In this document: in pieces, positions 3,355 to 37,233 of the stretch | How positions within the stretch are numbered: the first letter of the stretch is position 1 | Layout of the letters: every line of letters starts with the position of its first letter | Source of the DNA: an uncultured Eubacteriales bacterium | GTDB taxonomy: Bacteria > Acidobacteriota > Aminicenantia > Aminicenantales > Aminicenantaceae | Direction of reading: 5' to 3' | DNA: 64,000 bases | NCBI GenBank assembly: GCA_964633715.1 | Contig: CAZWHQ010000012.1 | Coordinates: 8,062 to 72,061 of the forward strand | Notes under the pieces: generated by a model | The model's database searches: none | What the model saw: only the letters and a program-made list of their open reading frames with translations | Told to the model about the DNA's origin: nothing | Translations under genes and position numbers: made by a program

Positions 3355-4719
3355 ATGAAAAACCAAACTGACGACAACGGCTTGAAGCGCAAATTGGGGC
3401 TGTTTCCTACGACCAATATCGTCGTAGCCAACATGATTGGCGCGGGCATCTTTACGACTTCAGGGCTGCTCATGATGGATTTACTCAATCCAGTTTTGAT
3501 GATTTCACTTTGGATTGTTGGAGGAATCATAGCCCTCTGCGGGGCATTGGCCTATGGTGAACTCGGCGCAGCCATCCCCCAAGCAGGCGGAGAATACACT
3601 TTTCTCTCAAAATTATACAATCCCATTCTTGGTTTTTTGAGTGGGTGGGTATCATTTTTTGTCGGCTTTTCGGCACCCATCGCAGCCTCGGCTATTGGAT
3701 TCACAGAATATTTCACCCGCGCATTTCCAGGATTCTTGAAGTTTGGTATTTTCGGCGAAACAGTGGAAACCTTAATCCTCAAAAAGTTTTATGCCATTCT
3801 TATCATCGTCATTTTTACCGTTATCCATATGAGAGGTCTGGAACTTGGAACCAAGGTTCAAAATTCTTTAACTGTTTTAAAAGTGGCCCTGATCGTGGGA
3901 CTGGTCTTTTTTGGTTTTTTGTTGGGGAATGGGGATATGAATCATTTCTCCCTCGGAAGTGTTTTTAATTTCGACTTTTCTGGCTGGAAAACGATCGGTC
4001 TCTCACTCATGTGGATTATGTTCGCCTACGCCGGATGGAATGCCTCCGCCTATATCGGCTCTGAAATTAAAAATCCTGCTAAAAATCTTCCACGATCGCT
4101 CCTGCTCGGAACCGGGATTGTCTTATTCCTCTATATCTGTCTCAACTTTTTCTATGTCTATGCCGTTCCCCCTGCCGATATGGGAGGTGTCATTTCGATC
4201 GGAGGGCTCGCAGTCGGCAATCTCTTCGGAAAATCCTTTGAAAGCCTGCTGTCGGTCTTGATTTCATTTGCTCTATTTTCGTCCTTAAGTGCCTTTATTA
4301 TTCTGGGCCCCCGCGTGTACTATTCAATGGCCAGGGACCGCGCTTTTTTCAAATTTGCAGGTGAAGTCCATCCCAAGTTTGGCGTTCCATCCAAATCGAT
4401 TTTACTGCAGGGAGGAATAGCGGTTGTGATGGTTCTCTTCGGTACCTTCGACCAGCTGCTCACCTATATGGGATTTTCTCTAGGAATTTTTCCGATTCTG
4501 GCTGTTCTTGGAGTATTTAAATTGAGACGGACCAACAAAAGTGTCACCAAACTCCCAGGATTTCCTGTCACCTCTCTGGTGTACATTGTTGCAGGTGTCT
4601 GCATTCTTGTTCTGGCCTATTTTGAACGCCCCATCGAATCATCGATCGCAATAGGAACGGTCCTGACTGGAATCCCAGCCTACTTCTTGTTTAAGAAGAC
4701 ATATAAAGACCAAGAGTAG
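3355..4719 (+). CDS. APC superfamily amino-acid permease
   Basis: 454 aa with 12 predicted TM segments. The N-terminus TTNIVVANMIGAGIFTTSGL is typical of the APC/LAT family. The start lies 13 nt after the upstream stop. Confidence 0.85.
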   Translation: MKNQTDDNGLKRKLGLFPTTNIVVANMIGAGIFTTSGLLMMDLLNPVLMISLWIVGGIIALCGALAYGELGAAIPQAGGEYTFLSKLYNPILGFLSGWVSFFVGFSAPIAASAIGFTEYFTRAFPGFLKFGIFGETVETLILKKFYAILIIVIFTVIHMRGLELGTKVQNSLTVLKVALIVGLVFFGFLLGNGDMNHFSLGSVFNFDFSGWKTIGLSLMWIMFAYAGWNASAYIGSEIKNPAKNLPRSLLLGTGIVLFLYICLNFFYVYAVPPADMGGVISIGGLAVGNLFGKSFESLLSVLISFALFSSLSAFIILGPRVYYSMARDRAFFKFAGEVHPKFGVPSKSILLQGGIAVVMVLFGTFDQLLTYMGFSLGIFPILAVLGVFKLRRTNKSVTKLPGFPVTSLVYIVAGVCILVLAYFERPIESSIAIGTVLTGIPAYFLFKKTYKDQE

Positions 4720-28689: not shown

Positions 28690-29687
28690 TTGACGTTTTT
28701 TATTTGCTGGATAAGGGTGTCGATCTCTGGGAAAGCCCTAAAATTATCATACATGGATTGAACTTTTTCTATAAATTCGCTTTTATCTGGATAGTGAATC
28801 TCCACTCCGGCTTCCTGGACACTTTTCAGTGCCAGCCGAGTGGCCTCTTTCCACAACTTTTTTTGTAGCTGGGCACATTCTTCGACCGCATCCTGTAGGA
28901 TCTGTTTTTCTTCCGTGGACAGATCTTTCCAGGATTGTGTGCTGATCAAGAGGACATCGGGCACTCCTGTGTGCTCATCGAGAGAATAAAACTTGCAGAC
29001 TTCATAATGCCGGGAGAGAAAAAAGCTTGGGGGATTGTTTTCTGCCCCATCCACAACTCCCTGTTGGAGAGCAGAATACAGTTCTCCCCAGGAAATAGGT
29101 GTTGGAGATCCCCCCATGGCTTGAACCATTTTGATGGACGTGGGACTCTCCTGGGTCCGAATTTTTAATCCCGCTAGATCACCAGGATTTAGGATGGGTT
29201 TTTCTTTGGAGTAAAAGCTGCGGGTGCCCGCATCAAAGTAGCACAACCCACGGAGCCAGAATTCTTCTCCCTCTAAAAGCAACTTCTTCCCAACCTCACC
29301 TTCCAGAACTTGAAAACGGTGTTCCTCATCCCTAAATATGTAGGGAAGGCTCAAAACACTCATGGCCGGTACAAATCCTTCCAACACACTGCAGGAAACT
29401 TTTGTCATATCGAGGCTGCCGATTTGAAGCAGTTCCAAACATTCCCGCTCGGAACCCAACTGCTCGGAGGGATAGATATCGATCCTCATTTGGCCTTCTG
29501 ATTTTTCTCCCACTTGTTTCGCCATAAACTCCATGGCTTTATGAACAGAATGAGAAGGATCCAGGCCGTGACCGAGTTTTAAAACTGTTATTCTCCGCTT
29601 TGGACTGCAGGAGAGAGAAAAAAGGAGAAGGAACAGAAACACTTTTAACTTCAACAAACTTATATATCTATTCACAATGGTATTCAC
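28686..29687 (-). CDS. dctP: TRAP transporter periplasmic solute-binding protein (DctP family), lipoprotein-type signal
   Basis: 333 aa. Signal peptide ends in LSCS. DctP-like fold length. It is in an operon with dctQM. Confidence 0.85.
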   Translation of the reverse strand: MNTIVNRYISLLKLKVFLFLLLFSLSCSPKRRITVLKLGHGLDPSHSVHKAMEFMAKQVGEKSEGQMRIDIYPSEQLGSERECLELLQIGSLDMTKVSCSVLEGFVPAMSVLSLPYIFRDEEHRFQVLEGEVGKKLLLEGEEFWLRGLCYFDAGTRSFYSKEKPILNPGDLAGLKIRTQESPTSIKMVQAMGGSPTPISWGELYSALQQGVVDGAENNPPSFFLSRHYEVCKFYSLDEHTGVPDVLLISTQSWKDLSTEEKQILQDAVEECAQLQKKLWKEATRLALKSVQEAGVEIHYPDKSEFIEKVQSMYDNFRAFPEIDTLIQQIKNVK

Positions 29688-31651: not shown

Positions 31652-32470
31652 ATGCAAATTAAAAGAGTACTTTATAATCTGTGCAGAAATAGAAATTTAG
31701 TCCTTTTAATTTCTATATTCCTCCTATTGGCGGTATGTGGAAAAGAAAAACCAGTCAACCCTGAATCCTTTTCGGCCCAAGAACTCAACACTCTGACAGC
31801 AGAGGAAAAAGCGGAAGAGTGGACACTTCTCTTTGACGGCAAAACATTCAACGGCTGGCGTGGAATAGGTTTGGAAAACATCCCGGAGGGACACTGGACC
31901 ATAGAAGACGGCGCCATCAAAAAGATCCCCTCCGGCAAAGTTTCCCTCCAGGAAGACGGGCAGCCTCTCGTAGGCGGAGATATAATGACAACCGAGACAT
32001 TCGAGGACTTCGAGCTCTATTGGGAATGGAAGATTGTCCCAGCTGGAAACAGCGGAATCAAATACAATGTCTCCGAAAACATGTCGGCTTCGAATCCTCC
32101 GCCTCATGGGGCACTCGGATTTGAATACCAGATTCTCGATGACGATCTCCACAGCGACGGACAAAGAGGGGGACGGTATACGGCGTCCGCCCTCTATGAT
32201 CTTGTGGAACCTATAGGAAAAGAGCTGAAACCTGTTGGAGAATTTAATACGTCCCAGATTATTATGAAGGGGCAGCACGGTGAACACTGGCTCAACGGCA
32301 CCAAGGTTTTAGAATATGACATGGACACAGATGAATTTAAAGCTCTGGTCGCCAAAAGCAAATATAAAGACTATGAGGGATTTGCGGACAAACGCAGCGG
32401 TCACATCGTTATTCAAGACCACACTTCAGCAGCCTGGTTCCGCAACATCAAAATCCGAATATTCAAATAA
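31652..32470 (+). CDS. DUF1080 (3-keto-disaccharide hydrolase-like, LamG/concanavalin fold) lipoprotein
   Basis: WTLLFDGKTFNGWRGIG…WTIEDGAIK…IQDHTSAAWFRNIKI is the characteristic DUF1080 start and end. A lipobox cysteine is present. Confidence 0.7.
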   Translation: MQIKRVLYNLCRNRNLVLLISIFLLLAVCGKEKPVNPESFSAQELNTLTAEEKAEEWTLLFDGKTFNGWRGIGLENIPEGHWTIEDGAIKKIPSGKVSLQEDGQPLVGGDIMTTETFEDFELYWEWKIVPAGNSGIKYNVSENMSASNPPPHGALGFEYQILDDDLHSDGQRGGRYTASALYDLVEPIGKELKPVGEFNTSQIIMKGQHGEHWLNGTKVLEYDMDTDEFKALVAKSKYKDYEGFADKRSGHIVIQDHTSAAWFRNIKIRIFK

Positions 32471-32480
32471 GGGGGAAAAT

Positions 32481-33821
32481 ATGAGTCAAAAAACAATCAC
32501 ACGAAGAAATTTTTTAAAAACGGTTTCAACAGGAGCAGTGGCGGCATCTGTTGTTCGACTGCCGACCTCAAGCTACGGAAAAATCCTTGGAGCCAACGAC
32601 CGCATTCGCGTTGGAATTGTCGGTTTTTCGGACAGGGCCCGGAATTCACTCATCCCCGCTTTTCTGGGAAGTGCAGAAGAACTCAATTTTGAAATTACTG
32701 CTGTCTCAGATATCTGGAACCGGAGGCGGGAAGAAGGAAAGGCTTTCCTGGAAGAAAAAACAGGCAATCCTGTGGCTGTTTTGCGCAACAACGAGGAGCT
32801 CTATGACTCAAATACAGTCGATGCTGTCATCATCAGCACCGCTGATTTTCAGCATGCCCTTCACTGCATACAAGGAGTCGAAGCAGGAAAAGATGTCTAT
32901 GTAGAAAAACCTTTCGCTAACAGCATGGCCGATGCTCGGGATGCCCTGAAAACCGTGTCAAAATCAGATAAAATCGTACAGATCGGAACCCAGCGGAGAA
33001 GCGCGGCCAACTACATCCAGGCCGACAGATTTATCCGGTCCGGCCGCTTTGGGGATATTGTGGCTGTGGAGATGACCTGGAATGTCAATCAACCCGGACG
33101 CTGGCGCAGACCTAAATTGGTCGAGGACCTCCGAGAAGACGATGTGGATTGGAAACGCTATCTTATGAACCGTCCATTCGAAGCATGGGATCCCAGAAAA
33201 TACATCGAATACCGCCTTTTCTGGCCTTACTCTTCTGGTATACCAGGTCAGTGGATGGTTCACCAGATCGACACGGTCCATTGGTTCACAGACCTTCCCC
33301 ATCCACGCAGTGTGGTGGTCAACGGCGGAATTTATCTCTGGAAAGACGGCCGCAAAAATTTTGACACCCTGACGGCCGTATTTGATTACGGTCCTCTTAA
33401 AGACACAACAAAAGGTTTCCAAGTTATTTATGTCTCACGGCAAACGAATTCAGCCGGCGGCGTTAAAGAGCTCTATTTTTCTAACGGAGGAACCCTCAAT
33501 CTGCTGAACAATACCATCACGCCCGAGGGTGGTTTAACCCAGGGAATGGCTGCAGCCATGGGGATGGAAGAAAACAGACTTCCCGAGATGTCCATCGCCG
33601 AAGCAGTAGGTGTCGAAACAGCAGCCGATACAGGAACGGACGACGCCACATCCGCCCACATGCGGAATTGGATGGAGTGTGTACGGAGCCGGAAAACACC
33701 AAATGCCGATATCCATGCCGCCTACAATCATTCCGTTGCGCTTAACATGACCATAGCAGCCATGCACTCAGGGAAACGCGTCACATTCAACGAGTCCAAA
33801 CAAGAGGTCATTATCAGCTAA
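32481..33821 (+). CDS. Gfo/Idh/MocA-family NAD(P)-dependent oxidoreductase with Tat signal
   Basis: Start ATG 32481 (MSQKTITRRNFLKTVSTGAVAAS). The Rossmann motif is VGIVGFSDRARN. The listed 32316 start would overlap the upstream gene. Confidence 0.85.
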   Translation: MSQKTITRRNFLKTVSTGAVAASVVRLPTSSYGKILGANDRIRVGIVGFSDRARNSLIPAFLGSAEELNFEITAVSDIWNRRREEGKAFLEEKTGNPVAVLRNNEELYDSNTVDAVIISTADFQHALHCIQGVEAGKDVYVEKPFANSMADARDALKTVSKSDKIVQIGTQRRSAANYIQADRFIRSGRFGDIVAVEMTWNVNQPGRWRRPKLVEDLREDDVDWKRYLMNRPFEAWDPRKYIEYRLFWPYSSGIPGQWMVHQIDTVHWFTDLPHPRSVVVNGGIYLWKDGRKNFDTLTAVFDYGPLKDTTKGFQVIYVSRQTNSAGGVKELYFSNGGTLNLLNNTITPEGGLTQGMAAAMGMEENRLPEMSIAEAVGVETAADTGTDDATSAHMRNWMECVRSRKTPNADIHAAYNHSVALNMTIAAMHSGKRVTFNESKQEVIIS

Positions 33822-33921
33822 AATCTTTAATTTTGCCTATCCTCATATAGAATTAGACCTTTCTATTTTTTTTTAAAAAGACTTGACAAAAACCTAGTTT
33901 GGCTTATCTTATAAATATGTG

Positions 33922-33947
33922 TTTATATAAATAGGTTTTTATATAAA
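33922..33947 (+). promoter_or_regulatory. Candidate ArsR operator: two copies of the 10-bp palindrome TTTATATAAA separated by 6 bp, just upstream of the arsR start
   Basis: gTTTATATAAAtaggttTTTATATAAAagg lies 10 nt before the ATG at 33959. A TTGACA -35-like hexamer is at 33883. Confidence 0.45.
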
Positions 33948-33958
33948 AGGTTATTGAT

Positions 33959-34303
33959 ATGGATGACGCACAGCAACTGCAGCTTCTCTTCCATACTCTG
34001 GGAGATGCCAACAGGCTTAAAATTATCAAGTTCATCGGAAAGGAAGAAAGATCCGTTTCCGAGATTGTAGAATCTATAGGACTATCTCAGCCCCTGGTTT
34101 CACACCATCTGAGAATTCTCCGGGAAAGAGAAATCTTGGAGACAAAACGAAACGGGCCCTTCATTTACTACAAATTGAAAAACGAGAAATTACTCGGTGC
34201 TCTGGGATTATTCTTAGAGATAGCCAGTACGGTAAAAAGCAGGACACCGTTTGAACCAATGTTTTGCTGTCCTCCCAAGTGGAGTACAAAAATAAAAAAA
34301 TGA
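33959..34303 (+). CDS. ArsR/SmtB-family metal-responsive transcriptional repressor
   Basis: The HTH is LGDANRLKIIKFIGKEERSVSEIVESIGLSQPLVSHHLRILRE. A C-terminal Cys pair (MFCCPP) is a possible metal site. Confidence 0.85.
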   Translation: MDDAQQLQLLFHTLGDANRLKIIKFIGKEERSVSEIVESIGLSQPLVSHHLRILREREILETKRNGPFIYYKLKNEKLLGALGLFLEIASTVKSRTPFEPMFCCPPKWSTKIKK

Positions 34304-34319
34304 TGAGGAGGTTAAGGAT

Positions 34320-34793
34320 ATGAATTATAACGGAAAGACAACAGGACCAAAGGAAAAGCAAATGTGGGAACACATGATGGAATGCTGCTGTTCGGAAATG
34401 TCGGACGAAGAGAAGAAAAAATGGAAGGCAGAAATTCCTAATATGAAGCAGCATATGATGGAATACGGCTGGGGCCATAAAATGGGCATGATGATAGGTC
34501 ACAAACATGGGAAGATGGGAAGCTTCATGCCTATGGAAATGTGCAAGGATATGATGTCCTCTCTACATCAAAGCCATAGGGTTGCGAATCTGGCTACTCC
34601 TGAGGTTCAGGGCTTATTCGAAGACTGGGTGGAACAAATCGAGCAGGAGATGGTGGATTATCTAAAGAACAAAGATTCTGTTGAAGTCCACGAGGTGGCA
34701 AATCATTTCAAAATATCTAAAGAGAGCACATATTACTTCCTGACCAGACTGGCTCAGAAAGAAAAGATAAAGCTGAAAGTCAATAAAGAGTAA
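34320..34793 (+). CDS. Met/His/Cys-rich putative metal-binding protein with C-terminal winged-helix-like domain
   Basis: Metal-binding-like motifs are ECCCSEM, HMMEYGWGHKMGMMIGHKHGKMGSFMPMEMCKDMM and repeated MxxM/HxxM. The last ~45 aa (VEVHEVANHFKISKESTYYFLTRLAQKEKIKL) are FeoC/wHTH-like. It lies 16 nt downstream of arsR. Confidence 0.5.
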   Translation: MNYNGKTTGPKEKQMWEHMMECCCSEMSDEEKKKWKAEIPNMKQHMMEYGWGHKMGMMIGHKHGKMGSFMPMEMCKDMMSSLHQSHRVANLATPEVQGLFEDWVEQIEQEMVDYLKNKDSVEVHEVANHFKISKESTYYFLTRLAQKEKIKLKVNKE

Positions 34794-34811
34794 GACTAAT
34801 TCAGTACTTTC

Positions 34812-35891
34812 TCAAGCTGAGTGAATAGAACGGATCGGCTGTGTAAAACACTCGGGAAAACTTGGTACATTCAACAGGGTTGAACAAGAGAGCATCATTA
34901 ACTGAATGGATAAAATAGACATTCTTTCTATTTTTTTTTGAGCCAGCTCGCGCTGGATGATGTGATATTGAACGGCCATCGAGTGCCCCACTTCCCTCGA
35001 CCAATAGGCCGCACTGTGTCCTCCTTTAGACTGGCCATAGGTAAAGGGGATATTGTTGTCCTCCAAAATCCGAATAAAATTTCGTGCGCCTCTGATCAAA
35101 CCGTCTTCTGTCCCACAGTCGATATAGATATGAGGCAGTTTCTCTTTAGGAATCTGAAGGACCAACTTGTAAGAATCATAGATATCACAATCTGCTTCAG
35201 TTAGAAAGATCTGCCCTTTCGGGGAGCGGTCCACCTGGCTGGAGAAACCTTCGATGGCTATGTTCGGATCCGGTTTATCGGACATCCGTTCCTCCCACAT
35301 CACCCAGGGTTTCTCCCCTTTTTTCAGCCGTTCTTTTTGGCTCTGGGCATATCCGATAACACCGCTGTGGCTCCCGATTGAACAGAACAATTCCGGATGC
35401 CTTAGCCCGAGCACAATCGCCCCATATCCGCCCATCGAAAGCCCATTTATGGCCCGGCCTTCTCTAGCATTGATTGTCCTGTATGAGTCATCCACGTGAG
35501 GTATTAAATCTTTGATAATATAGTCTTCCCAGTTATTTTTTTGGCCCTCTTCATTTTTGGCCCAGTTGACATACCAGGAGTTTCCCACGTCCGGCATAAC
35601 CACGATGAGATCATAATTAGATGCATATCTGGGAGCCCCAAGAGCTGCCCACGCCCTGTAATTGCTGGTCAGTCCATGAAGAAGGTAAAGAACAGGATAG
35701 CTTGTTTTTGTGGTTTCATAATCTTCCGGCAGATAGATGTTGTATTTCATCGTTCTGTTCACTGATTCAGAATAAAAATCGACAGTTTTAACCTCTCCGG
35801 TAGCAGGCAGCACACAAACAAAAACAAAACCCAATATTAAAGCAAACGTCCATATTGACTGTGGATAAACACGTGTTTGGCTGTTCCTCAT
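34812..35891 (-). CDS. Secreted esterase (esterase D / enterochelin-esterase-like alpha/beta hydrolase)
   Basis: Start ATG 35891 with an AGGAGGG RBS and a signal peptide. Motifs PVLYLLHGL and GLSMGGYGA (nucleophile elbow GxSxG). Confidence 0.7.
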   Translation of the reverse strand: MRNSQTRVYPQSIWTFALILGFVFVCVLPATGEVKTVDFYSESVNRTMKYNIYLPEDYETTKTSYPVLYLLHGLTSNYRAWAALGAPRYASNYDLIVVMPDVGNSWYVNWAKNEEGQKNNWEDYIIKDLIPHVDDSYRTINAREGRAINGLSMGGYGAIVLGLRHPELFCSIGSHSGVIGYAQSQKERLKKGEKPWVMWEERMSDKPDPNIAIEGFSSQVDRSPKGQIFLTEADCDIYDSYKLVLQIPKEKLPHIYIDCGTEDGLIRGARNFIRILEDNNIPFTYGQSKGGHSAAYWSREVGHSMAVQYHIIQRELAQKKIERMSILSIQLMMLSCSTLLNVPSFPECFTQPIRSIHSA

Positions 35892-35913
35892 TTTCCCTCC
35901 TAACAAAATAAAC

Positions 35914-37233
35914 CTATTCTTTATCTATTTTCAGGATTGTTTTCAACAACACATTAGCCCCGTTGACAACATCCGACATGTGCGAGAATTCTTTTGGAGA
36001 ATGGCTGACTCCTCCGACACTTGGGATAAAGATCATCCCCGTAGGAGCAATCTTAGCCATATCCTGCGCATCATGGCCGGCACCGGAGGGCATAAATTGT
36101 GATGTCAATCCCAGTTCTTCAGCCGATTCTGCAATTTTTTTTCTTATAGCCGGGTCGGTAGGAGCCGGAACAGCCATGGCATCGATGGGGTCAAAAAAGA
36201 TTTTTGTGCCTGTTTTTTTCGATAAAAGGGCTGCTTCTTCTTCAATTTTCCTGTAGAGAGTTTGGATTTTATCAGCAGACAGGTCCCGGAGTTCCAGACT
36301 CATGACCACTTTTCCAGGTATGACGTTGGGCGCCCCCGGTTCAGCATGGATTCGTCCGACTGTTCCAACTTGACTGCCCTCGACACCGGTGACAACCCTG
36401 TTTACGGCTAGGATCAAGTGCGCCGCTGTCAATAAAGCATCCTGTCTCACATTCATAGGCGTCGTTCCAGCATGATTCGCATATCCCTCGATGCTCACAT
36501 CCCACCATGCAATCCCCACGATCCCCTCGACAACACCTATATCGATGTTTTTCGTCTCCAGAATGCGTCCCTGTTCGATATGGATTTCTAGGAAAGCCAA
36601 GATATCTCCTTTTTTACGTTTAACACTGTCCAGACTGTCCGGATCCCCTCCCAGAGCCTGAATCCCCTCCAGGACGGTTTTGCCGCTGTGGCTTTTTTCC
36701 GTGAGAGCTTCAGAAGTCAAGGTTCCATTCATCGCTCGGCTTCCAACAAGCCCCCCCTCTTCATCCGTAAACACAATCACCTCTAGAGGATGCCGGGTTT
36801 GGAGATTGTTCTCAACAAGCACTTGGACACACTCGATAGCACTCAGGACACCAACAGTCCCATCATATTTTCCACCGTTCGGGACGGTATCGATATGTGA
36901 TCCGGACAGGATCACGGGCAGAGATTTTTCTCTCCCCTCCCGTCTCCCCACCATGTTTCCCGCTGCATCAATCCTCACATCCAAACCTGCGGCCTCCATG
37001 AGGACTAAAATATATTTTCTTGCGGCAATGTCTTCGTCGCTATAGGCCACACGGTGGACACCGCCTTCAGAGGTTTTTCCAAATTCCGCCAGTTCAAAAA
37101 TGTGTTTCTCTATTCTTTTTGCATTAACCCTTAATTCTTTCATTGGTTGTCCTTTCTCACACAAGTATAAAACCGGACTGGCCATCAGAAGTAAAAATAG
37201 CCCAAGGAAAAGTCGTCGACAAAAATTGTACAT
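35914..37233 (-). CDS. M20-family amidohydrolase (allantoate amidohydrolase / N-carbamoyl-amino-acid hydrolase type) with signal peptide
   Basis: SGSHIDTVPNGGKYDGTVGVLSAIE and a C-terminal dimerization domain. RBS GGGGAGG. Confidence 0.75.
   Translation of the reverse strand: MYNFCRRLFLGLFLLLMASPVLYLCEKGQPMKELRVNAKRIEKHIFELAEFGKTSEGGVHRVAYSDEDIAARKYILVLMEAAGLDVRIDAAGNMVGRREGREKSLPVILSGSHIDTVPNGGKYDGTVGVLSAIECVQVLVENNLQTRHPLEVIVFTDEEGGLVGSRAMNGTLTSEALTEKSHSGKTVLEGIQALGGDPDSLDSVKRKKGDILAFLEIHIEQGRILETKNIDIGVVEGIVGIAWWDVSIEGYANHAGTTPMNVRQDALLTAAHLILAVNRVVTGVEGSQVGTVGRIHAEPGAPNVIPGKVVMSLELRDLSADKIQTLYRKIEEEAALLSKKTGTKIFFDPIDAMAVPAPTDPAIRKKIAESAEELGLTSQFMPSGAGHDAQDMAKIAPTGMIFIPSVGGVSHSPKEFSHMSDVVNGANVLLKTILKIDKE

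Follow-up and report, generated by a model that had tools for sequence, protein, structure and literature searches.

A two-gene cassette of arsR and X

The window analysed here is a stretch of 64,000 nucleotides from contig CAZWHQ010000012.1 of an uncultured bacterium (GTDB family Aminicenantaceae), and the system in question is a pair of adjacent forward-strand genes within it, an arsR and a second gene whose 157-amino-acid (aa) product is referred to here as X. An original prediction, made from the sequence, had described a TTGACA box, a pair of palindromes 6 bp apart, an arsR and a 157-aa open reading frame (ORF) rich in Met, Cys and His, and all of these lie where it placed them. From the sequence, arsR and X are best read as a self-contained autoregulated two-gene cassette, with X as the partner protein of the repressor. 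Its elements are listed below.

33883–33888, + strand: −35 box TTGACA of the arsR promoter
33905–33910, + strand: −10 box TATCTT, sigma-70-like, at a 16-nt spacer, recognised by consensus match alone
33910–33927, no strand assigned: inverted repeat 1, TATAAA-tatgtg-TTTATA, perfect; the −49 site, present in 15 of 20 orthologous loci
33922–33931 and 33938–33947, no strand assigned: two TTTATATAAA palindromes with the 6-bp spacer TAGGTT between them
33926–33943, no strand assigned: inverted repeat 2, TATAAA-taggtt-TTTATA, perfect; the −33 site, present in 16 of 20 loci
33942–33959, no strand assigned: degenerate repeat 3, TATAAA-aggtta-TTGATA, with 1 mismatch; spans the arsR ribosome-binding site as far as the A of the ATG
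33947–33950: arsR ribosome-binding site AAGG, under the degenerate third repeat
33959–34303, + strand: arsR, encoding a 114-aa ArsR/SmtB-family winged-helix repressor, TsoR-related
34250–34279, + strand: ArsR C-terminal tail EPMFCCPPKW, a putative ligand-sensing site
34305–34311, + strand: GAGGAGG ribosome-binding site of X, 8 nt ahead of its ATG
34320–34793, + strand: X ORF, 157 aa, TsoA-like, open throughout between its ATG (34320) and its TAA (34791–34793)

The promoter boxes match the sigma-70 consensus at 10 of 12 positions. Of the 15 closest orthologous loci, 14 have TTGACA at −76 or −77 relative to the ATG and one, L003, has TTTACA; in five more distant loci TTGACA was also found, at −61 to −72. 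The two genes form one operon. They are 16 nt apart in the window and in many orthologues only 4 nt apart, and each of the 21 close loci has arsR immediately ahead of X. Since the pair has no adjacent effector gene, X is the only regulated output in the window. An Rfam scan of positions 33500–35100 found no RNA family.

The cassette (33800–34800) has a G+C content of 0.36–0.42, against 0.48–0.52 in the flanking genes, which may reflect Lys/Met-rich coding together with an AT-rich promoter, or foreign origin; the variable neighbourhoods of arsR–X elsewhere would fit a mobile two-gene module. An anti-phage defence or toxin–antitoxin cassette was considered and set aside, as PADLOC gave only generic helix–turn–helix (HTH) similarity (Csa3, CasR and CARF winged-helix).

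A conserved operator array overlapping the promoter

The conserved unit upstream of arsR is the inverted repeat TATAAA-N6-TTTATA, arrayed in a 16-bp register that begins where the −10 box ends and extends to the first letter of the arsR start codon; position 33910 is at once the final base of that box and the first base of repeat 1. Repeat 2 sits 16 bp downstream of repeat 1 with a half-site junction common to both, and the TTTATATAAA palindromes are such junctions, where neighbouring inverted repeats share half-sites. The palindrome pair had been put forward as the operator: it does belong to a conserved array overlapping the promoter, but the true unit is the inverted repeat and not the palindrome.

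Allowing at most one mismatch, TATAAA-N6-TTTATA has 4 matches in the window where 0.27 would be expected, and TTTATATAAA has 4 exact copies against 0.08 expected. A wider regulon within the window was rejected, the other copies of TTTATATAAA (12127 and 30506) and a near-site at 28770 all falling within long ORFs and being attributed to chance.

For comparison, 20 non-redundant related loci were taken from genomes and metagenomes. Every one has the motif upstream of arsR, and the 120 nt before each arsR (2,400 nt in all) hold 42 sites, against 2 in the other 162 kb. Within the closest clade the offsets of the sites from the ATG are fixed at −49, −33 and −17, and in other loci they are −63/−31 or −49/−17, that is, at 16- or 32-bp spacing. 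The motif also occurs upstream of an ArsR with only 36% identity (L037), and L034 retains the 6-6-6 geometry with a different half-site (ATATGAG-N6-CTCATAT). There is strong comparative evidence that the palindrome pair is part of a highly conserved operator overlapping the promoter, and operator-mediated autorepression of arsR–X is very probable. An inverted-repeat operator overlapping its own promoter, an ArsR/SmtB trait, is indicated here by both sequence and conservation.

The −17 register holds a perfect site in L003 and L010, and a site with at most one mismatch in just 5 of the 13 closest loci; the function of the window's third repeat is uncertain. This repeat overlaps the arsR ribosome-binding site and start codon, and it might add repression at translation initiation or may be a site decaying in this lineage.

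An ArsR repressor with a cysteine pair in its tail

Judged by profile models, the first gene product is a true ArsR/SmtB-family protein, as the original prediction had it: it scores 52.1 bits against Pfam HTH_5 (PF01022; cut-off 22) and 76.2 bits against the NCBIfam ArsR/SmtB metalloregulator model (NF033788; cut-off 55). Its closest solved-structure relatives are SmtB, CzrA and NolR, and its identity is 69–89% over the 15 closest loci and 49–59% in the five more distant ones. The best specific model is TsoR (NF045707), matched at 89.2 bits over model positions 2–92 of 99, below the equivalog cut-off of 115. The score against a BigR-type model (53 bits) is far under the cut-off of 155, and the Cys positions are not alike.

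Alignment with SmtB shows no Cys or His in the window ArsR at the ligand positions of alpha3N (CxC) or alpha5 (D/H/H/E), ERSVSEI standing for SmtB ELCVGDL and NEK for DHH. The Cys pair of its tail is C103–C104 (nt 34265–34270); arsR had been predicted to end with this pair, which is present but lies 10 residues short of the C-terminus and not at the very end. The tail form PMF[CC/CS/AC/TC]PPxW is kept in 17 of 20 loci and is missing from three Spirochaetota loci, whose ArsRs have no tail and zero Cys and whose partner X proteins retain the Met-rich region and Cys75. A third tail Cys, five residues upstream (C-x4-CC), occurs in 7 of 21 tabulated orthologues.

The ArsR tails of more distant pairs end in WCCR, GCNC, QCQC, a terminal C or WPPWxMMCRMM, and C-terminal Cys motifs of some type (CC, CxC, terminal C or WPPWxMMCRMM) are found in the ArsRs of 7 of 8 lineages. 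WPPW-x-MMCRMM, seen in the ArsRs of L034 (2964–3323) and L039 (4382–4741), resembles the X motif PMEMC(K/R)xMM, and repressor and partner may share one ligand-binding motif.

X joins a soft-ligand segment to a winged helix

X can be divided into three parts, all on the + strand.

34320–34529 (residues 1–70), + strand: variable Met/His/Cys-rich segment with ECCCSEM (CCC at nt 34383–34391)
34530–34595 (residues 71–92), + strand: helix with PMEMCKDMM; C75 at nt 34542–34544
34596–34790 (residues 93–157), + strand: winged-helix domain, in which alpha1 (TPEVQGLFEDWVEQIE) is acidic and invariant and the HTH and wing after it are basic

The protein contains 18 Met (11.5%), 9 His and 4 Cys, the latter being the CCC at residues 22–24 and C75. 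The N-terminal segment has a Met fraction of 0.20, ranges from 48 to 118 aa over the family with up to 7 Cys, and, like the rest of the chain outside the winged helix, is modelled by AlphaFold2 (AF2) at low confidence. The CCC, HxxM and MxxM ligand clusters noted originally are present, but CCC is not a constant of the family (CFC, CGC and SFF variants occur); the conserved Cys is C75, which is kept, in a PxxMC motif, in 67 of 69 close sequences. Neither a signal peptide nor a membrane segment is visible in the X sequence, and Pfam and NCBIfam scans gave no match to ArsD (PF06953), metallothionein or CpxP/Spy (LTxxQ). Kinship with the Spy/CpxP LTxxQ proteins was rejected, the best solved-structure match, Spy at E = 0.22, being too weak.

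The winged helix, about 64 aa (residues 94–157) with AF2 pLDDT above 90, is near-invariant across the 69 close sequences, while the N-terminus differs in length and composition. Its charge is −7 in alpha1 and +4 in the HTH and wing. Foldseek matched it to small winged helices, namely 5duk, Z-alpha and the DeoR DNA-binding domain, at a TM-target of about 0.7 and an r.m.s.d. of 1.2–1.5 Å with weak E-values. Against Pfam HTH_DeoR (PF08220) X scores 22.1 bits (cut-off 21), over just 27 of 57 model positions, and against FeoC (PF09012) 16.3 bits, under the cut-off of 21. As modelled, the C-terminal fold is a generic small winged helix; the predicted ~45-aa wHTH/FeoC-like tail is thus confirmed as a winged helix, at greater length. 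Charge complementarity of the ArsR tail (+5, basic) with helix alpha1 of X (−7, acidic) was considered and rejected, since the Spirochaetota ArsRs are tailless and the L025 tail is not basic.

A large family with one named relative

A word-index search returned 72 close X homologues, none with a functional annotation, and a HMMER search of 1.84 billion representatives gave at least 352 clusters (50% identity) at E ≤ 1e-3. The sources name these homologues ‘hypothetical’, ‘HTH domain-containing’ or ‘winged helix-turn-helix domain-containing’, and in some cases ‘HTH transcriptional regulator’. A minimal member of 104 aa reveals the shared core: a Met-rich stretch (short or long), (F)NPMEMC(K/R)xMM, a helix ATPE(V/L)(Q/R)xLFE(D/E)W, and the HTH and wing. 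X had been described as lacking an obvious characterised counterpart. It has relatives in this large, widespread and uncharacterised superfamily, which is without a Pfam family of its own, and just one of them is named; its architecture, a soft-ligand tail fused to a winged helix, has no studied counterpart.

That sole named relative is the computationally defined ‘LULAXC motif selenoprotein TsoA’ (NF045695), which is paired with the ArsR-type TsoR; a review (PMC13188914) gives Tso as the ‘three selenoprotein operon’ of Haft and Tolstoy (2025). X residues 71–147 align to TsoA model positions 67–143 of 144 (E = 1.5e-16, 61.1 bits, equivalog cut-off 170), and 20 further superfamily members all score at most 74 bits on the model; a second word-index search found no match carrying the name TsoA. 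The window ArsR and X thus match the two Tso models as products of adjacent genes, but both scores fall under the equivalog cut-offs (89 < 115 and 61 < 170) and the N-terminal half of X has no TsoA match. The X ORF also has no in-frame selenocysteine (Sec; UGA) codon and no L[CU]LAxC motif, and neither tsoB nor tsoC follows it, the next ORF (34812–35906) being convergent on the opposite strand, with an esterase as its apparent L005 counterpart. Because Sec, the LULAxC motif and the following tsoB/tsoC genes are all missing, X is classed by its sequence features as a TsoA relative, not a TsoA.

Gene neighbourhoods of arsR–X pairs

Distant contexts in which arsR directly precedes X are L025–L027, the P0105 contig, L030–L031, L033, L034–L036 and L037–L038, and in L039–L040 a 79-aa gene separates the two. 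The remaining neighbours vary by locus (esterase, M20 peptidase, AbiEii, isochorismatase, MacB/PadR and others). In several loci the pair heads an operon that goes on to effectors. The order in L025 is arsR, X, a methyltransferase gene, a 227-aa gene and ArsM (335 bits, cut-off 263); in L030 it is arsR, X, a small transmembrane (TM) protein gene, an MduS-like methyltransferase, an ArsR/ArsC (LMW-phosphatase) fusion and Acr3; and in L012 and L039 arsR and X are followed by a methyltransferase. L002 has divergent arsR–ArsP–thioredoxin-like genes, and MerR, MerA and MerT adjoin arsR–X in L037. True ArsD and ArsA genes lie 1.8–3.9 kb upstream of arsR–X in L033, and X therefore does not replace ArsD.

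The only copper-related gene seen, in L034 and L036, encodes a CopD-domain protein and stands about 0.65 kb ahead of arsR–X. An assignment of X to Cu(I)/Ag(I), as first suggested, finds no support in these contexts, in which that lone gene, in one lineage, stands against arsenic and mercury genes (arsenite methyltransferase, Acr3, ArsC, ArsD/ArsA, ArsP and MerR/MerA/MerT).

A proposed mechanism and its alternatives

We propose that ArsR dimers occupy the TATAAA-N6-TTTATA array at repeats 16 bp apart. Because the array runs from the −10 box to the ribosome-binding site, its occupancy would block RNA polymerase, and arsR and the downstream gene would be repressed together. Lacking the alpha3N and alpha5 sites, ArsR would sense its ligand through the Cys pair of the C-terminal tail. 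The proposed ligand is a thiophilic metal(loid), and trivalent arsenic/methylarsenite or a mercury-type ligand is likelier than copper. Thiol-based sensing of a soft metal(loid), argued from the tail motifs and the contexts of relatives, seems somewhat more probable than otherwise, and among the candidate ligands those of the arsenic or mercury type are preferred to copper or silver because the distant pairs sit with ArsM-like methyltransferase, Acr3/ArsC, ArsD/ArsA or mer genes.

At the weakest step of the proposal, X would belong to this ArsR clade as its dedicated partner and would not be a terminal resistance effector. Capture of the ligand that ArsR senses would fall to the flexible, Met/Cys/His-rich N-terminus and to Met-flanked Cys75, the winged helix would dock to ArsR and/or the operator, and X would hand the ligand to the ArsR tail or share it, and buffer it after induction, by a logic like that of CopY/CopZ or ArsR/ArsD. 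What argues for a dedicated partner is that X heads operons beside arsR even where real effectors follow, that its conserved part is a macromolecule-binding domain and not the ligand-rich part, that some partner ArsRs are without ligand residues, and that some ArsR tails bear the Met-flanked Cys motif of X. The Cys-less Spirochaetota ArsRs, whose X proteins keep their candidate ligands, suggest that X may be able to carry the sensing function. The whole chain, of an autoregulated thiol-based ArsR and a partner X that binds the same ligand and cooperates with it, we hold tentatively, as a credible reading that falls short of being probable. A metal-buffering co-regulator role for X, as first put forward, is a reasonable idea.

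A more pointed version has X, and by extension TsoA, as the ligand-sensing subunit of a two-protein ArsR switch, the metal(loid) being held between the proteins or passed across them. The repressor would then give the DNA binding and the Cys tail, and the partner the Met-flanked Cys (Sec in TsoA). We regard this version as doubtful; if it were true, X would represent a widespread unrecognised class of obligate ArsR co-sensors gating metal(loid) methylation and efflux operons, covering Aminicenantes, Spirochaetota, Thermodesulfobacteriota, NC10-like and other lineages.

The main rival holds that X is a stand-alone cytosolic metal(loid) sink or buffer, metallothionein-like in the manner of SmtB/SmtA, with ArsR sensing alone and the winged helix serving folding or dimerisation. 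X is the sole gene under the operator in the window clade, and its N-terminus is low in complexity, rich in soft ligands (20% Met, up to 7 Cys) and variable in length, as metal-binding tails are; yet the strongest conservation in X is in the winged helix and not in the ligand-rich part, distant X genes stay beside arsR at the head of operons despite real effectors downstream, and the ArsRs of Spirochaetota lack any residue that is a candidate ligand. We consider a pure sink rather unlikely. Next comes the possibility that X binds DNA independently, as a second transcription factor (repressor or activator) acting at the TTTATATAAA junctions or at distant sites with its N-terminus as sensor. The recognition-helix positions that make DNA contacts in DeoR-type proteins are Ala-Tyr-Tyr-Phe in X, alpha1 is strongly acidic (−7) and the promoters show no second conserved motif beyond the ArsR-type repeats, all of which speak against such a factor. 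It would draw on the canonical winged helix with its basic HTH and wing (+4), the borderline HTH_DeoR match (22.1 against 21 bits), the resemblance in structure to the DNA-binding domain of DeoR and to further winged helices that bind DNA, and the naming of homologues by some sources as HTH transcriptional regulators. The operator half-sites also exceed the need of one dimer, although several ArsR/SmtB dimers per operator are already normal. We judge this explanation distinctly unlikely.

A buffering co-regulator specific for Cu(I)/Ag(I), as distinct from the arsenic- or mercury-type ligand favoured above, would account for the MxxH, HxxM, MxM and MM motifs and the His residues of X, since Cu(I)/Ag(I) is bound through motifs of this kind in CusF, PcoC and CueO, and for the CopD-domain gene near the pair in L034 and L036. 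It is very unlikely in our view, as Met-only copper sites are typically periplasmic and X has no signal peptide, and as no CopA, CusCBA, CsoR or CueR context was found among about 30 loci, where arsenic, mercury and methyltransferase genes recur instead. Sensing of oxidants or of reactive sulfur or selenium, by reversible oxidation of the vicinal Cys pair and the Met-rich segment, appears highly improbable. ArsR-family thiol switches do exist (the BigR-type model is matched at 53 bits), the relative TsoA is a selenoprotein whose operon includes a rhodanese/DsbD-like selenoprotein, and msrA lies near the pair in L034 and L036; but the BigR score is far under its cut-off and the Cys do not correspond in position, arsenic or mercury genes are found beside the pair more often, and msrA, about 1.6 kb ahead of arsR, is encoded on the other strand.

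Several points weigh against the partner proposal itself. The ArsR tail motif and the Cys content of X differ by lineage, so that a single coordination chemistry is not assured, and Met-rich segments classically bind Cu(I)/Ag(I) and have little affinity for As(III). The X winged helix (+4, with exposed Lys and Tyr) is compatible with independent DNA binding. In L028 and L029, X has no detectable adjacent arsR and is preceded by a DGC-domain gene and a 75-aa membrane protein gene. The window clade has no arsenic, mercury or transporter gene nearby, and tblastn searches of the window with ArsM, Acr3, ArsA, ArsD, ArsP, Trx and methyltransferase sequences of related loci returned arsR alone; the ligand assignment therefore rests on distant relatives.

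ArsR/SmtB repressors are usually treated as one-protein sensors. Here a whole ArsR clade comes with a fixed partner. An autoregulated ArsR sensor with a small accessory protein is a known arrangement, and it is the accessory family that is uncharacterised. The conserved operator offers an immediately testable promoter–reporter system. If X shares in sensing, this would explain how ArsRs without ligand residues, as in Spirochaetota, respond to signals; there would be a first clue to the function of the selenoprotein TsoA, and several operons for arsenic methylation and detoxification in uncultured anaerobes would have their regulatory head identified. Were X only a sink, cytosolic metal(loid)-binding proteins would still gain a new, Met/Cys-rich type. 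Current understanding is not overturned unless the two-protein sensing model is true.

Comparison with characterised systems

A functional parallel to the proposed partnership lies in copYZAB of Enterococcus hirae, where a winged-helix repressor with a Cys-rich C-terminal tail, CopY, is fed its ligand by a co-transcribed small metal-binding protein, CopZ. CopY is, however, of the BlaI/MecI family, and CopZ has a ferredoxin-like MxCxxC fold without a winged helix, so the resemblance is functional only, with no homology. In arsRDABC of R773, the second gene likewise encodes a small vicinal-Cys protein, ArsD, first called a secondary regulator and later an As(III) chaperone; ArsD has a thioredoxin-like fold and serves ArsA, whereas X does not match ArsD (PF06953) and there is no arsA here.

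Sites formed by a C-terminal CC or CC+C sense methylarsenite (MAs(III)) or As(III) in the repressors SpArsR and AfArsR (PMC11868830); the AfArsR type 2 site is Cys95, Cys96 and Cys102, and SpArsR is MAs(III)-selective (PMC11868830). The window ArsR resembles both in having a C-terminal vicinal Cys pair and no CVC site, with two Cys as in SpArsR, and the C-x4-CC of many orthologues gives three, as in AfArsR. The window pair, however, lies in a Pro/Trp-rich tail about 15 residues past alpha5 and not at the end of the helix, and the order here is C...CC, not CC...C, the positions not being homologous to Cys95, Cys96 and Cys102. The likeness would be convergent at best.

In SmtB/SmtA and AntR/AntC (PMC12641948), too, the protein under the control of an ArsR/SmtB repressor is small and acts to sequester or chaperone a metal(loid). 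SmtA and AntC have unrelated folds without a winged helix, and AntC serves an adjacent P-type ATPase, AntA (PMC12641948), whereas no transporter is adjacent here. SdpR/SdpI (PMC2910880) provides an ArsR-family autorepressor that is set by a co-transcribed partner and not by a ligand site of its own; the SdpR model, however, scores 56 bits on the window ArsR, under its cut-off of 100, and SdpI is a polytopic membrane protein, whereas X is soluble.

Flanking genes and further neighbours

The ORFs on either side of the cassette are without an evident link to it, and the local gene order is common only to the closest relatives.

32316–33821: 501-aa ORF, upstream of the cassette
34812–35906, − strand, convergent: 364-aa ORF; its apparent counterpart in L005/L015 matches Pfam Esterase
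35914–37233, − strand, convergent: 439-aa ORF; its apparent counterpart in L005/L015 matches Pfam Peptidase_M20

Among related loci, an msrA (PMSR/MsrA) gene occurs within about 2 kb upstream of the pair in L034 (864–1370) and L036 (2525–3031, minus strand), in a Thermodesulfobacteriota-like lineage; with the CopD-domain neighbours, it is the only hint toward Met oxidation or copper. A gene for a PEMT/ICMT-family membrane methyltransferase adjoins arsR–X in two otherwise unrelated close loci, L009 (4651–5340) and L010 (3232–3720, minus strand); together with the soluble methyltransferases encoded after X in L025, L012, L030 and L039, these genes hint at a link to methylation chemistry.

In five distant lineages a third small gene occurs with X and encodes a single-TM protein with the motif WGGxxW(I/V)FP(L/I)(I/V)G. 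By tblastn it was not found in the window or in close relatives. It lies at 3687–4055 in L034, 3855–4130 (minus strand) in L037, 4748–4987 in L039, 3035–3262 in L028 and 4368–4781 in L030, directly upstream of X in L028 and in L039, where it falls between arsR and X. Its product ends in a SHOCT domain, a coiled coil or a zinc ribbon and may be a membrane component of the arsR–X system.

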